Of a stretch of 64,000 nucleotides of DNA, positions 59,609 to 63,231 are shown piece after piece (position 1 is the first letter of the stretch; each line of letters starts with the position of its first letter). The DNA comes from Bacteroidota bacterium. GTDB taxonomy: Bacteria > Bacteroidota > Bacteroidia > Bacteroidales > FEN-979. The translations under genes and the position numbers were made by a program. Under the pieces are notes generated by a model. That model saw only the letters and a list, made by a program, of their open reading frames with translations, was not told the DNA's origin and ran no database searches. Location of the stretch: contig JAPLDL010000017.1 of NCBI GenBank assembly GCA_026391735.1, forward strand, positions 11,522 to 75,521, given 5' to 3'.

Positions 59609-61054
59609 CTAATGTACCACAGTGATCTTTTTCAGGATTGTCCCGGTCCTGTTTATTATCCTGATAATGTAAATCCCTGATGGAATTGCAGAAAGAGGGA
59701 TGCTGAACTCCTTTTTCATACCCGTCGTCACTTCAAAAACTATTTGTCCTGTAATATTGATCAGTTCGGCCGATTCAAGGTCGGTGCTGCTTTGGACTGT
59801 CAGAAGATCAGTTGCAGGATTTGGGAATACCCGTATCCCGTTATTACTTAGCGCTTCGATGCCCGCTGACAGGTTGACCAGCATGGTATCGCAAGGAGCC
59901 TCGCACAGGAACGTATTGCTTAAAAGATCATAATGAATGGCCGTAATGAAATAGTAGTAAATGCTGCATGTGTCATTTGGAGGCAGGTTGTCAAAATACT
60001 CAAGCGTTATAACCGGAGATGCGTTCAGCTTTGAGAACAGATCAGGCGTCCATTGGCTCCTGTATATATTATACCCTACAACCTCCTGCACACTGTCACA
60101 ATCGGGCTTCTGCCAGGAGAGATGAACGACCTTTCCGTTCTGGGTGTGGCTGCAGGCAGTTGGCCCTTTGCATACCGGATAAAGATTGATGTTGTCAATC
60201 GCCCATTTTTCAATATTTAGGCTGTTGACGCCACTTACTTTGAAACCAATCTGAATTCCCGGACCCATTGCAGCCGAAAAATCTATTTTCTTATGAACCC
60301 ATCCGGTGTTCCCCTGGTTGGGAATTTCGTAAACAGGGTGCCATCCCGAGTCGTTAAAATAACCTGCGGTGAGCAGTTCTGTTCCACCGGCGGAAATATC
60401 AGTAAGCTGGTAATCAAAATCAAGGTACATATTGGCGCAGACCCATGGACGTGAATCAAGTACCATCGCCTTGAGCTTAATATCATAATTCTGCAGGGAA
60501 GGGCTTCCATTGAAGACTGCGCTTGGAGGAGGGTTTCCTTCAGTTACCCGGATGTTCCAGTTAGACTGATTCGGGACGAATGTCCAGTTCCTGAATGCAA
60601 AGGTGCCCTGGTCCCAGGTTTCAAAAAATGGCAGCGGGCAACTGCAATACAAATCGATGATAACAGGGCCGGCGGGCAGAGATGTCCCGAACTGTCCGGG
60701 AGAACCATAGTAAGTAAGGTCGTAATTAGCTGTAAGAGTATAGGAATACGTTCCGTACCAAAGGCTAAAGTCATAATAAAAAAGTGAGTCCGGGTTATTG
60801 ATATACGAGATCAAAATCCCTTCGCGGTACAAATAATACCCCACTAATCCTGCAGGAGTGGTCCCGTCGGGTTTCTGAGGTTTTTGCCACTGCAGATATG
60901 CAGTAGTTTCTATTGTGGTACCTTGAAAATTCAGAGGCGGATAAAGGGTGTCGAGGGGGTTCGTGGGTAAGGTGCTATGGCCACGGGCAGGCGCGCAAAT
61001 GAAGGCAGGCAAGGCGAAAAGCAGCATACAGGCCAATGTCTTTATTGATTTCAT
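59609..61054 (-). CDS. T9SS-secreted protein with FN3-like and adhesin/MAM-like domains
   Basis: Signal peptide; LQWQKP..GYYLYR and LSWQKP..GYNIYR FN3-like units; C-terminal VFPNPA...SGIYIIRI...KKITV CTD. Confidence 0.82.
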   Translation of the reverse strand: MKSIKTLACMLLFALPAFICAPARGHSTLPTNPLDTLYPPLNFQGTTIETTAYLQWQKPQKPDGTTPAGLVGYYLYREGILISYINNPDSLFYYDFSLWYGTYSYTLTANYDLTYYGSPGQFGTSLPAGPVIIDLYCSCPLPFFETWDQGTFAFRNWTFVPNQSNWNIRVTEGNPPPSAVFNGSPSLQNYDIKLKAMVLDSRPWVCANMYLDFDYQLTDISAGGTELLTAGYFNDSGWHPVYEIPNQGNTGWVHKKIDFSAAMGPGIQIGFKVSGVNSLNIEKWAIDNINLYPVCKGPTACSHTQNGKVVHLSWQKPDCDSVQEVVGYNIYRSQWTPDLFSKLNASPVITLEYFDNLPPNDTCSIYYYFITAIHYDLLSNTFLCEAPCDTMLVNLSAGIEALSNNGIRVFPNPATDLLTVQSSTDLESAELINITGQIVFEVTTGMKKEFSIPLSAIPSGIYIIRIINRTGTILKKITVVH

Positions 61055-61293: not shown

Positions 61294-63231
61294 ATGAATT
61301 CGGTACACGGTAATTTTACAGAGCTGGAACAGGCTGTACGTGCGGCACTTGAGACCTATTCGAATGTTCACCGCGGCAGCGGGCATTTCTCTAAGGCATC
61401 CACTGCCCTGTTCGAAAAGGCCAGGGACATTATTCTTGAATGCCTGGAGCTGGACAAGCGCAAATACACAGTCATCTTTTGCAGCCCCGCAAGGGCATCT
61501 GTTTTGAGGGCAAAGCTTGAACCGGGAAGTTATACTATTGTGTCAAGCCATGATACGGGCCTTTGTTTAGGCGTAAGCGCAATCGCTGTCAAAAAGAAAG
61601 CCCTTCCCAAAGGAGTCCCTTTCCAGGCAGGCGGAGGAACTGCAAAACTTGTCGGTCCGGATTGGGTTAAATGGGCCGGTGCCCCCGACAAGTTCGAAGC
61701 CGGAACGCCAGCCATTATCAATATCATCGCCTTTGCCAAAGCGCTCAGCATGGTCCGAAATCAGAAAAACATACCTTTTTCTGATCATACGGGAGAAAAG
61801 CTATCCGCAGAAAAAATACTTTACCATGATGAACTGGAGGGATATTCAGGCCGTGAACTGCTCGGCAAGCTAAGGCAGACGCTGATTGGCAGGAACACCC
61901 TTGTGCCCACCACCCAAGGCGAAAGGCCTTTTATCAATCTCGATAACGCGGCAAGCACTCCAAGCTTTGAACCCGTGTGGGAGGCAGTCTGCAGGACATG
62001 GAGCCAGCCTTTGGAGGTTCAGAAGGAGGTCGTTGAAGAAACCAGGAAGGTTTGCTCAAAGTTTCTCGGCGCACCGCCTGACAAGTACGATCTGATCTTT
62101 ACTTCAAACGCCACCGAAGCAATTAACCTTGCGGCCGAAAAACTGAGCCTTGAATCCTTCCCGGGGACCGAAACCGTGATACTCACCACACTCCTCGAAC
62201 ACTCCTCCAACGACCTTCCCTGGCGCATATTCCCCGGTCCTTCGATGATCAGGATAGGTGTCGACAATGAGGGCATGCTGGATCTGAACGAACTGGAGGC
62301 GCTTATGCGCGCATACAACCTTGACGGCCTTCACGGGACAAAGCGCATCAGGCTGATGGCCGTAAGCGGGGCTTCAAACGTTCTCGGCAATTATAACAAG
62401 CTGGAGGAGATCAGCGGCATCGTCCACCGTTACGGGGCCCGACTGCTTGTGGATGCCGCGCAGATGGTGGCTCACCGCAAAGTTGTCATTCAGGCGGGAG
62501 GCTTCGACTACCTCGCCTTCTCGGCCCATAAAGTGTATGCACCTTTCGGGACAGGGGTGCTTGTTGTTAAAAAAGGTCTGCCGGGTTTCAGTCCTGCCGA
62601 AACGGAAATGATCAGGTCTTCGGGTGAAGAAAACGCCGCTGGGATAGCTGCGCTGGGAAAGGCGCTGATCCTGCTTGACAGGATAGGGCTGGACCTGGTC
62701 CTTGAGGAAGAACAGGCCCTGACGAAGTATGCGTTGCATGCCTTGACGCAAATACCCGGGATAACGATTTTCGGCATCAAAGATCCCGCTTCAGAGCTTT
62801 TCAGCCGGAAAGGCGGGGTCATCATGTTTGCCCTGAAGGGTATCATGGCTAATAAGCTGGCCAAAGAACTTGCAATCCAGGGAGGGATAGGAACAAGGGC
62901 CGGCTGCCATTGCGCCCACCTTATTATCAAGCACCTTCTGCATTTCACACCGACCTTGGCAAGGATACAGCGCACCATAGTGACCCTGTTCCCGATGATC
63001 AACCTACCCGGACTTTTACGTATCAGCTTCGGCATCCAAAACAGCAGGAAGGATATCGACGAACTGATAGTCGTATTGGGTAAAATCCAGGGGAAAAGAG
63101 GAATGTCATCCGCAGTCAAAGATGCAGCAAAAGATCAAAAGGAAAGATCATTGCTTCCCGTGGCAAAAGTGAAGCGGCAGATGAACGGTTTTGTTGAAGC
63201 TGCAGCTGCGAGGGTCTATTCAAAAGGCTGA
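61294..63231 (+). CDS. aminotransferase class V / SufS-like cysteine desulfurase with an extra partial N-terminal copy
   Basis: LDNAAST, EHSSN, DAAQ, SAHK (PLP Lys), RAGCHCA (catalytic Cys), RISFG; the N-terminal module has YSNVHRG and FEAGTP. Confidence 0.85.
   Translation: MNSVHGNFTELEQAVRAALETYSNVHRGSGHFSKASTALFEKARDIILECLELDKRKYTVIFCSPARASVLRAKLEPGSYTIVSSHDTGLCLGVSAIAVKKKALPKGVPFQAGGGTAKLVGPDWVKWAGAPDKFEAGTPAIINIIAFAKALSMVRNQKNIPFSDHTGEKLSAEKILYHDELEGYSGRELLGKLRQTLIGRNTLVPTTQGERPFINLDNAASTPSFEPVWEAVCRTWSQPLEVQKEVVEETRKVCSKFLGAPPDKYDLIFTSNATEAINLAAEKLSLESFPGTETVILTTLLEHSSNDLPWRIFPGPSMIRIGVDNEGMLDLNELEALMRAYNLDGLHGTKRIRLMAVSGASNVLGNYNKLEEISGIVHRYGARLLVDAAQMVAHRKVVIQAGGFDYLAFSAHKVYAPFGTGVLVVKKGLPGFSPAETEMIRSSGEENAAGIAALGKALILLDRIGLDLVLEEEQALTKYALHALTQIPGITIFGIKDPASELFSRKGGVIMFALKGIMANKLAKELAIQGGIGTRAGCHCAHLIIKHLLHFTPTLARIQRTIVTLFPMINLPGLLRISFGIQNSRKDIDELIVVLGKIQGKRGMSSAVKDAAKDQKERSLLPVAKVKRQMNGFVEAAAARVYSKG

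Follow-up and report, generated by a model that had tools for sequence, protein, structure and literature searches.

Within a 64,000-nucleotide stretch of Bacteroidota bacterium DNA (assembly GCA_026391735.1, contig JAPLDL010000017.1, positions 11,522 to 75,521 of the forward strand; hereafter the window), the reading frame at 61294..63231 on the (+) strand begins with ATG and runs open for 645 amino acids and a stop codon. Sequence comparisons confirmed that its product is made of two SufS-derived modules with complementary losses. The protein is probably a type II, SufS-like pyridoxal 5'-phosphate (PLP) enzyme organized as a single-chain pseudo-heterodimer, in which a reduced N-terminal module (N-module) completes the one active site of a catalytic C-terminal module (C-module).

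Two SufS-derived modules in a single chain

The gene and its parts are as follows, with confidence in the predicted structure given as the predicted local distance difference test (pLDDT).

61294..63231 (+), whole gene, encoding the SufS-like PLP enzyme (open reading frame and Pfam)
61294..61764 (+), N-module, residues 1-157, a stripped SufS-like copy (alignments to structure chains and to the sister family, model)
61357..61377 (+), YSNVHRG, residues 22-28, equivalent of the SufS α3-α4 loop with H55/R56 (HR loop)
61543..61554 (+), SSHD, a vestige of the S-x-H-K motif of the PLP lysine (sister alignment)
61630..61674 (+), Gly-rich loop G113-G115 and β-hairpin, GGGTAKLVGPDWVKW, residues 113-127, equivalent of the SufS β-latch
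61681..61710 (+), APDKFEAGTP, in which P131 is the cis-proline equivalent (structure-chain alignment, conservation)
61693..61710 (+), FEAGTP, residues 134-139 (motif check)
61765..61851 (+), linker, residues 158-186 (29 residues), ordered in the model (10-residue block means of pLDDT 84-97)
61852..63102 (+), C-module, residues 187-603, complete catalytic SufS-like domain (alignments and structural match)
within the C-module (+), DNAAST, residues 217-222 (motif check)
61990..62025 (+), place where the NVHRG segment of the C-module is gone (gap of ~10 residues relative to the sister protein P0220)
62104..62127 (+), SNATEAIN, start of a helix with T274, E275 and N278, equivalents of SufS T95, E96 and N99
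62197..62211 (+), EHSSN, residues 302-306 (H303 invariant)
62452..62463 (+), DAAQ, residues 387-390 (D387 and Q390 invariant)
62521..62532 (+), SAHK, residues 410-413, with the PLP lysine K413 (SufS alignment)
62569..62634 (+), residues 426-447, shortened hairpin site (19-residue gap relative to P0220)
end of 62569..62634 (+), SSGEEN, residues 442-447, in the EAGTP position (motif check)
62896..62916 (+), RAGCHCA, residues 535-541; C540 aligns with the SufS catalytic C364
63103..63228 (+), C-terminal helical tail, residues 604-645, outside the SufS fold (model)

The initial annotation had described a front part with trans-acting elements and no catalytic core, followed by a catalytic part from which those elements are missing. 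Checked one by one, the motifs lie where it placed them: YSNVHRG, the GGG hairpin and FEAGTP are confined to the N-module, in which S-S-H-D stands where SufS has S-G-H-K. The C-module has DNAAST, EHSSN, DAAQ, SAHK and RAGCHCA but lacks NVHRG, the hairpin and EAGT, with SSGEEN in place of the last.

Chance resemblance can be discounted: the whole protein matched Pfam Aminotran_5 in three stretches (E-value 6e-76), and residues 1-200 matched it by themselves in two (4.4e-17). Aligned to solved SufS chains, residues 1-200 formed two collinear blocks. The first, residues 14-53 (chain ~59-98), is the helix-loop-helix with NVHRG, and the second, residues 82-173 (~220-312), comprises the strand past the PLP lysine, the Gly-rich loop and hairpin, FEAGTP and the following helix. 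Residues 244-548 aligned to SufS ~66-384, with a gap precisely at the Gly-rich loop, β-hairpin and EAGTP of the solved structures.

Like the type II desulfurases (SufS, CsdA and plastid Nfs2; 6mr2, 1jf9 and 1t3i), the protein has the class V aminotransferase fold with its PLP-binding and catalytic residues, among them the PLP lysine, the Asp at the pyridine nitrogen and the stacking His. An R-x-G-x-x-C loop, β-latch, HR loop and EAGTP are likewise common to both. The catalytic cysteine lies on the short R-x-G-x-x-C loop, RAGCHCA aligning with the R359..C364 segment of SufS. The β-latch is present, yet only in the N-module, and is deleted from the catalytic module. In contrast to SufS, therefore, the latch, HR loop and EAGTP stand outside the catalytic module on a degenerate N-terminal copy, the loop reads C-x-C instead of H-H-C, and no SufE, SufU or CsdE gene is adjacent. 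By motif counts, each chain carries a single set of catalytic residues, and the protein would differ from the usual two-site homodimer.

The HR loop and T278 of SufS reportedly come from the other subunit, according to the structure papers on CsdB. That the hairpin acts on the active site of the partner, which the initial annotation had taken as established, is documented in two studies, where the Gly-rich loop and hairpin of SufS form part of the active site in the neighbouring monomer, and the amide of S254 is able to contact the persulfide on C364 (PMC10011822, PMC11507941). In addition, N99 links helix α6 to the Gly-rich loop at G251, and disturbing the latch removes protection of the persulfide (PMC10011822); the R56A variant of E. 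coli SufS loses activity, and R56 in its inward position touches T278 and is itself ~4 Å away from C364 (PMC11507941).

Reciprocal loss is a family-wide trait

The complementary pattern first noticed in this one protein holds across the family, as judged from motif counts in 167 full-length members (600-710 amino acids, identifiers up to P0183, out of 270 proteins) and from an alignment of 55 full-length members chosen from the same 270 by length and spread. Motifs of the front part occurred in a single copy in nearly all of the 167 (HRG in 166, EAGTP in 163, GGG in 159), as did those of the back part (DAAQ in 162, RxGCxC in 160, the HK motif in 159); under the stricter patterns EHxSN and DNAAS, the single-copy counts were 150 and 125. 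The order in the fused family is HRG, GGG, EAGTP, DNAAS, EHxSN, DAAQ, HK, RxGCxC, whereas single-module relatives have DNAAS, HRG, EHxSN, DAAQ, HK, GGG, EAGTP, RxGCxC.

In the 55-member alignment, eight N-module residues are invariant (H26, R27, G28, G113, G114, E135, G137 and P139), and T138 (54/55) and P131 (49/55) nearly so. The position of the former PLP lysine in this module is Asp or Glu in 46 of the 55 members. Invariant C-module residues are D217, T274, H303, D387, Q390, S410, H412, R535 and C540, accompanied by the near-invariant K413 (54/55), C538 (53/55), N278 (51/55) and E275 (50/55). Within the SSGEEN segment, N447 is kept in all 55 members, E446 in 40 and E445 in 35.

Two further observations concern positions left behind by the losses. 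N278 (62125-62127) corresponds to SufS N99 and is conserved in 51/55 C-modules despite the absence of a Gly-rich loop there, and the corresponding N-module position is hydrophobic (L71); this combination fits a cross-module contact from N278 to G113/G114 (61630-61638). The vestigial EAGTP loop of the C-module carries the two glutamates E445 and E446 (62626-62631). At the vestigial start of the phosphate-binding helix of the N-module (A66 and R67; 61489-61494), arginine is found at position 66 in 13/55 members and at position 67 in 28/55. As a speculation, a salt bridge between these glutamates and arginines might occupy the second, dead site.

Predicted structure and pairing of the modules

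Modelled by AlphaFold2 from a 55-row alignment, the full-length chain formed one compact unit with a mean pLDDT of 93.8 and a predicted template modelling score (pTM) of 0.94. Ten-residue block means in the N-module were 83-98, except for the first ten residues (74); part of the region around the start of the C-terminal tail was of low confidence, with block means of 63 and 55 across residues 601-620. Of the core sheet, the modelled N-module retains three β-strands (58-63, 80-84 and 95-100) plus the hairpin, and it has no small domain.

A Foldseek search with the full model ranked E. coli SufS at the top (target-normalised TM-score 0.84-0.87, compared with 0.79-0.87 for the SufS matches to the C-module overall). 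A second aligner matched Synechocystis SufS (1t3i_B; Z-score 32, root-mean-square deviation (RMSD) 2.1 Å, 372 residues aligned) to model residues 187-602 only. The matches listed for the full model were all to individual chains, and the single-chain glycine decarboxylase GLDC was not among the 50 of them. The N-module model matched only the large domains of fold-type-I enzymes, including human selenocysteine lyase (3gzc_A, chain 41-316; Z-score 9.6, RMSD 3.2 Å, 126 residues aligned), Mycoplasma SufS (Z-score 8.8) and Ser4 (8y96_C; Z-score 8.2, RMSD 3.2 Å, 118 residues aligned). In the ESM Atlas it matched class V clusters only, the best being a 234-residue representative with a score of 0.95. 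The N-module would sit in the position of the partner subunit, with indirect support from the confident single-unit model and from the behaviour of the N-module when folded by itself.

Folded alone from a 30-row alignment, the N-module had a pLDDT of 68.5 and kept its core, with values dropping under 50 in the stretches 26-31 and 111-137 as well as at linker residues 166-171 and 183-186; inside the full chain, the stretches 26-31 and 111-137 have 10-residue block means of 83-97, the two runs not being strictly comparable owing to their different alignment depths (55 versus 30 rows). The loss of confidence at the HR loop and from the Gly-rich loop through FEAG when the C-module is absent suggests that these elements become ordered only against the C-module.

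It is very improbable that the N-module is merely a structural or regulatory appendage, such as a docking site, to a C-module that homodimerises and works without the borrowed elements. The C-module does keep all of its cis catalytic residues, and the SufS fold save for the NVHRG and hairpin segments. Set against this, the N-module residues invariant in 55/55 members are exactly the active-site and latch residues of SufS, the same elements are missing from the C-module throughout the family, and the borrowed elements lose model confidence without it. In E. coli SufS, moreover, R56A is inactive and disturbance of the latch leaves the persulfide unprotected (PMC11507941, PMC10011822).

A second alternative is a domain-swapped oligomer, in which the N-module of one chain would complete the C-module of another, giving a dimer or larger assembly with two or more sites. 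The linker (158-186) is 29 residues long, and related systems are known to assemble further: heterodimers of the aminotransferase SerTA form heterotetramers (PMC11726168), and the published model of the single-chain GLDC is a homodimer (PMC7259800). Set against these, the single-chain model is compact (pTM 0.94) and its linker is ordered (block means 84-97). We regard swapping as unlikely and favour pairing within the chain over pairing between chains.

Covariation between the modules was analysed in 167 sequences (effective number 117). By mutual information with average product correction (MI-APC), the strongest pairs included links of N-side positions 117, 120 and 124 (hairpin) and 29 (loop) with C-module positions 304, 518, 519, 528, 536, 539 and 555-562. 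Of the 30 highest-ranking pairs between the modules, the N-side position fell within the borrowed elements in 18 (matched by 115/2000 circular shifts), and in 6 of these the C side also fell within catalytic segments (matched by 10/2000), the segments having been defined after the top pairs were known and a few hairpin positions dominating.

Several points count against a single-chain composite site in a desulfurase, beginning with this late definition of the MI-APC segments. The covariation signal also depended on the method, since mean-field direct coupling analysis with a reduced alphabet gave no enrichment: the N side lay in the borrowed elements in 9/30 pairs and both sides qualified in none, values matched by 747 and 2000 of 2000 shifts, respectively. 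A single-chain AlphaFold2 prediction cannot tell intrachain from domain-swapped pairing and so does not exclude the latter, and the unequal alignment depth of the two folding runs qualifies the confidence argument. The top NCBIfam match, the SufS subfamily model TIGR01979, scored 246.4 bits against a curated cut-off of 475.1, and the remaining desulfurase models likewise scored below their curated cut-offs; the single-module sister family described below also falls under the SufS cut-off. Finally, a neighbourhood survey of 80 loci (crude caller of open reading frames, 919 frames, all-against-all BLASTP) found no conserved neighbour, at most 3 of the 29 full-architecture loci sharing one. One of the clusters consisted of antisense frames within the desulfurase gene itself.

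Distribution of the fused architecture

A word-indexed search returned at least 120 clusters at 60-100% identity and 600-693 amino acids, all but three covering at least 97% of the query; names among the listed clusters point to Bacteroidota, Chloroflexota and Dehalococcoidia. An exhaustive search of 50%-identity representatives gave 389 proteins at E ≤ 1e-30, and several dozen of the 150 representatives listed were full-length, with a single near-whole-query match at 35-56% identity. The full architecture occurred at 29 of the 80 loci analysed in species-representative genomes, with both modules fused into one frame at all 29. These loci belong to Anaerolineae (Chloroflexota), Acidobacteriota, Bacteroidota, Actinomycetota, Alpha-, Gamma- and Deltaproteobacteria, Myxococcales, Aminicenantes and one metagenome-assembled genome of Thorarchaeota.

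A hidden Markov model of the N-module found matches in 16 of 41 related genomes, its own genome counted; by rank, these were 8/10 in the same genus, 13/24 in the family and 2/16 in other families of the order. Fifteen of the 16 matches lay in frames of 612-689 amino acids, and the remaining one in a 406-residue frame close to a contig end. Homologues with the same reciprocal pattern, which the initial annotation had proposed to look for, are thus found at 29 loci in many phyla and in 16 of the 41 related genomes. The recurrence of the architecture there and in the at least 120 clusters rules out a misassembly or one-off fusion. With the N-module in 16/41 related genomes, the gene is accessory and patchily distributed, and in every case that could be checked the modules were fused.

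Matches that deviate in length were also inspected. The short, split-looking ones looked at were frameshifted or truncated calls by appearance. P0187 (462 amino acids) starts exactly at the C-module boundary and has SGAEN where EAGTP would be expected; either its start was wrongly called or it represents a true two-gene form with the C-module on its own. Fifteen giant proteins (866-3349 amino acids) were scanned and combine the module with unrelated HD, HATPase, kinase, PMI, methyltransferase, GNAT, NUDIX and 2-Hacid_dh domains, to which we attach no functional weight. The whole fused module also lies inside proteins of 2150-6923 amino acids, namely P0137, P0159, P0168, P0188 (6923 amino acids), P0191, P0197, P0204 and P0229, a group in which HD, HATPase, methyltransferase, GNAT, NUDIX and 2-Hacid_dh domains accompany it. 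Such very long module-bearing proteins may be eukaryotic or run-together gene models.

Probable origin from a single-module sister family

The fused proteins have a sister family of ~420-480 residues with a single module that holds all elements in the usual order (for example P0218, P0220 and loci L030-L080). Motifs common to both are YSNVHRG[ST]G, EH[HS]SN[DE]LPWR, SAHK.YAPFG and GIG.R.GC.CAH, exemplified in the sister family by EHHSNELPWR, SAHKMYAPFG and GIGVRNGCFCAH.

Each module could be laid onto the sister protein P0220. N-module residues 8-63 aligned to P0220 54-109 (41% identity, E-value 2e-10) and residues 79-155 to 234-310 (32%, 3e-13), whereas the C-module aligned to 10-450 (33%, 2e-75) with two gaps, one located at the NVHRG segment, the other at the hairpin. 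On these coordinates the modules overlap at ~80-109 and in the flanks of the hairpin gap within 234-310, which indicates that the N-module is a decayed whole copy and not a set of transplanted loops. Loop transposition was accordingly judged less likely, the N-module having kept vestiges of core strands that the C-module has too. Direct BLASTP of the N-module against the C-module gave weak, collinear matches (E-values 0.13 and 1.3).

With phmmer, the N-module scored 44.6-69.1 bits against 19 of 20 sister proteins and 28.6 against the twentieth, compared with 32.9 against the SufS of its own genome. The C-module scored 175-237 bits against 20/20 sister proteins, compared with 111.8 against the same canonical SufS. 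As far as these scores indicate, both modules are closer to the sister family than to their own genome's SufS. A quick IQ-TREE phylogeny was built from 78 rows, comprising the C-modules of 55 fused proteins, 20 members of the sister family and, out of the 7 other class V proteins in the genome, 3. The fused C-modules formed one clade (55/55) with a support of 99 by the Shimodaira-Hasegawa-like approximate likelihood ratio test; the sister proteins fell on the opposite side with a support of 93, and fused and sister proteins together stood apart from SufS with a support of 100.

Duplication followed by reciprocal loss, as put forward in the initial annotation, is supported by the overlap of the modules in the vestigial core and by their shared affinity to the sister family. 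The simplest reading is that a gene of a sister-like ancestor was duplicated in tandem and that the two copies then lost complementary parts; one origin suffices for the sample.

Proposed mode of action

We propose that, after tandem duplication of an ancestral gene of the SufS-like sister family, the downstream copy would have kept the catalytic apparatus (K413, D387, H303, R535 and the nucleophile C540) and shed the three elements with which each subunit of a homodimer serves the active site of its partner. The upstream copy would have lost its active site, most of the core sheet and the small domain, keeping the three trans elements on a small scaffold. The outward-facing elements of the C-module would have decayed because they were useless once the N-copy had lost its active site.

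In the resulting protein, the N-module would pack on the C-module at the place of the partner subunit and complete a single composite active site, to which the C-module would supply PLP binding, R535 and C540. The Gly-rich loop and hairpin, with T116 as the S254 equivalent, would close the catalytic cysteine off; the PLP phosphate would be contacted by T138 of FEAGTP, and H26 and R27 would line the channel for substrate and persulfide.

Comparison with other composite fold-type-I enzymes

Fold-type-I PLP enzymes are taken to require a dimer, since residues of the neighbouring subunit are borrowed by each active site. In GLDC, each pseudo-dimer reportedly has a single active site (Nakai 2005; Hasse 2013). 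According to PMC7259800, two fold-type-I halves are joined in one GLDC chain and derive from one precursor, the N-half lacking the lysine and the C-half being catalytic, and, GLDC apart, all such fold-type-I enzymes are described as homodimers. The present protein resembles GLDC in its two homologous halves, lysine-less N-half and catalytic C-half. It differs in that the halves of GLDC keep the full seven-stranded fold, whereas the N-module here has ~157 residues and three strands, and in that the catalytic half itself lacks the outward-facing elements. Nor does it belong to GcvP, the model GcvPB (NF003346) scoring 17.5 bits against a cut-off of 441.

The second comparable system is SerTA (Ser4/Ser5; 8y96) from Serratia sp. 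ATCC 39006. According to PMC11726168, it has one active site per heterodimer, Ser4 is a short lysine-less paralogue that gives residues needed for activity, and its authors present it as the first heterooligomeric aminotransferase studied. Both systems combine a short lysine-less fold-type-I partner with a catalytic part, the contribution to the active site being a predicted one in our case. SerTA, in contrast, is encoded by two genes instead of one fused chain and belongs to the sugar-aminotransferase family; its Ser5 is complete, with no reciprocal loss, and Ser4 is larger (~210 residues, four strands). What distinguishes the present architecture from GLDC and SerTA jointly is a partner that is fused and cut further, together with reciprocal deletions in the catalytic half. 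We found no published description of this architecture in the literature searched, which included few subscription journals.

We lean towards the view that a fold-type-I enzyme has here escaped obligate homodimerisation, its partner having been cut to a built-in module of ~157 residues to give a single-chain, one-site desulfurase with a minimal partner. If true, this would be a second and far more extreme route to a fold-type-I unit with one active site, and a clean natural case of duplication followed by reciprocal loss. It would also mark the HR loop, β-latch and EAGTP as the indispensable partner parts of a SufS-type site, which bears on work on regulation by the latch, and would offer a template for engineering monomeric desulfurases.

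Chemistry and genomic context

Desulfuration of cysteine (or selenocysteine) would be the most likely chemistry. L-cysteine (or selenocysteine) would be converted to alanine, leaving a persulfide (or perselenide) on C540 that would be handed to an acceptor. The catalytic loop (62905-62913, C538-H539-C540) reads G-C-H-C, compared with G-H-H-C in SufS and G-C-F-C in the sister family. C538, two residues from the nucleophile C540, might relay or cap the persulfide.

Possible, with a probability well below that of desulfuration, is the same architecture with other chemistry, such as that of a selenocysteine lyase, of a C-S lyase acting on another thiol or of a desulfinase. Several features are in keeping with it: scores under every curated NCBIfam cut-off, a G-C-H-C loop instead of G-H-H-C with C538 in 53/55 members, and an LPWR motif (W310 and R311 invariant) common to the family and its sister. 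We know of no LPWR motif in SufS. Moreover, the genome is already supplied with a SufS-SufE pair, with a fusion of SelD to a class V protein and with another class V enzyme next to DrsE_2. Set against these, C540 is invariant and aligned with the persulfide cysteine of SufS, and R535, H303 and K413 are conserved. The nearest single-module relatives also adjoin a gene for a DsrE-like protein (DrsE_2, PF13686) at 10/51 loci, which points to persulfide chemistry.

DsrE-like proteins carry sulfur. The sister loci with DrsE_2 nearby are L038, L040, L044, L046, L049, L059, L075, L076, L079 and L080, in Clostridia-type records, and the DrsE_2 protein can be considered a candidate for accepting sulfur in the wider family. 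The fused family differs from its sister in having two modules, a changed motif order and no conserved neighbour. No suf, isc or csd gene lies among the window neighbours, as the initial annotation had stated, nor does SufE, SufU or CsdE stand beside the gene in the window; an acceptor for the fused enzyme is thus presumably not encoded nearby. A family this common across many phyla, with no known sulfur-transfer partner beside it, may serve an unrecognised sulfur or selenium pathway.

Elsewhere in the genome, SufE adjoins the canonical SufS on another contig. Two further class V genes lie outside the window. At G000:C6:275777-277614 (-), a DrsE_2 (PF13686) gene directly adjoins a class V enzyme. 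At G000:C14:66413-68572 (-), SelD (384.6 bits) and a class V aminotransferase (260.3 bits) match within one 759-residue frame, an arrangement that suggests a fusion of selenophosphate synthetase with a NifS-like enzyme.

The neighbours of the desulfurase gene in the window encode an ornithine carbamoyltransferase (OTCase), a GNAT protein, an aldo-keto reductase, a small unassigned open reading frame, a protein with a type IX secretion system (T9SS) tail and a CBAH hydrolase. The T9SS-tail gene (59609-61054, (-) strand; 481 amino acids) is divergent from the desulfurase gene across a 239-nucleotide spacer, and its sole Pfam match is the T9SS C-terminal sorting domain.

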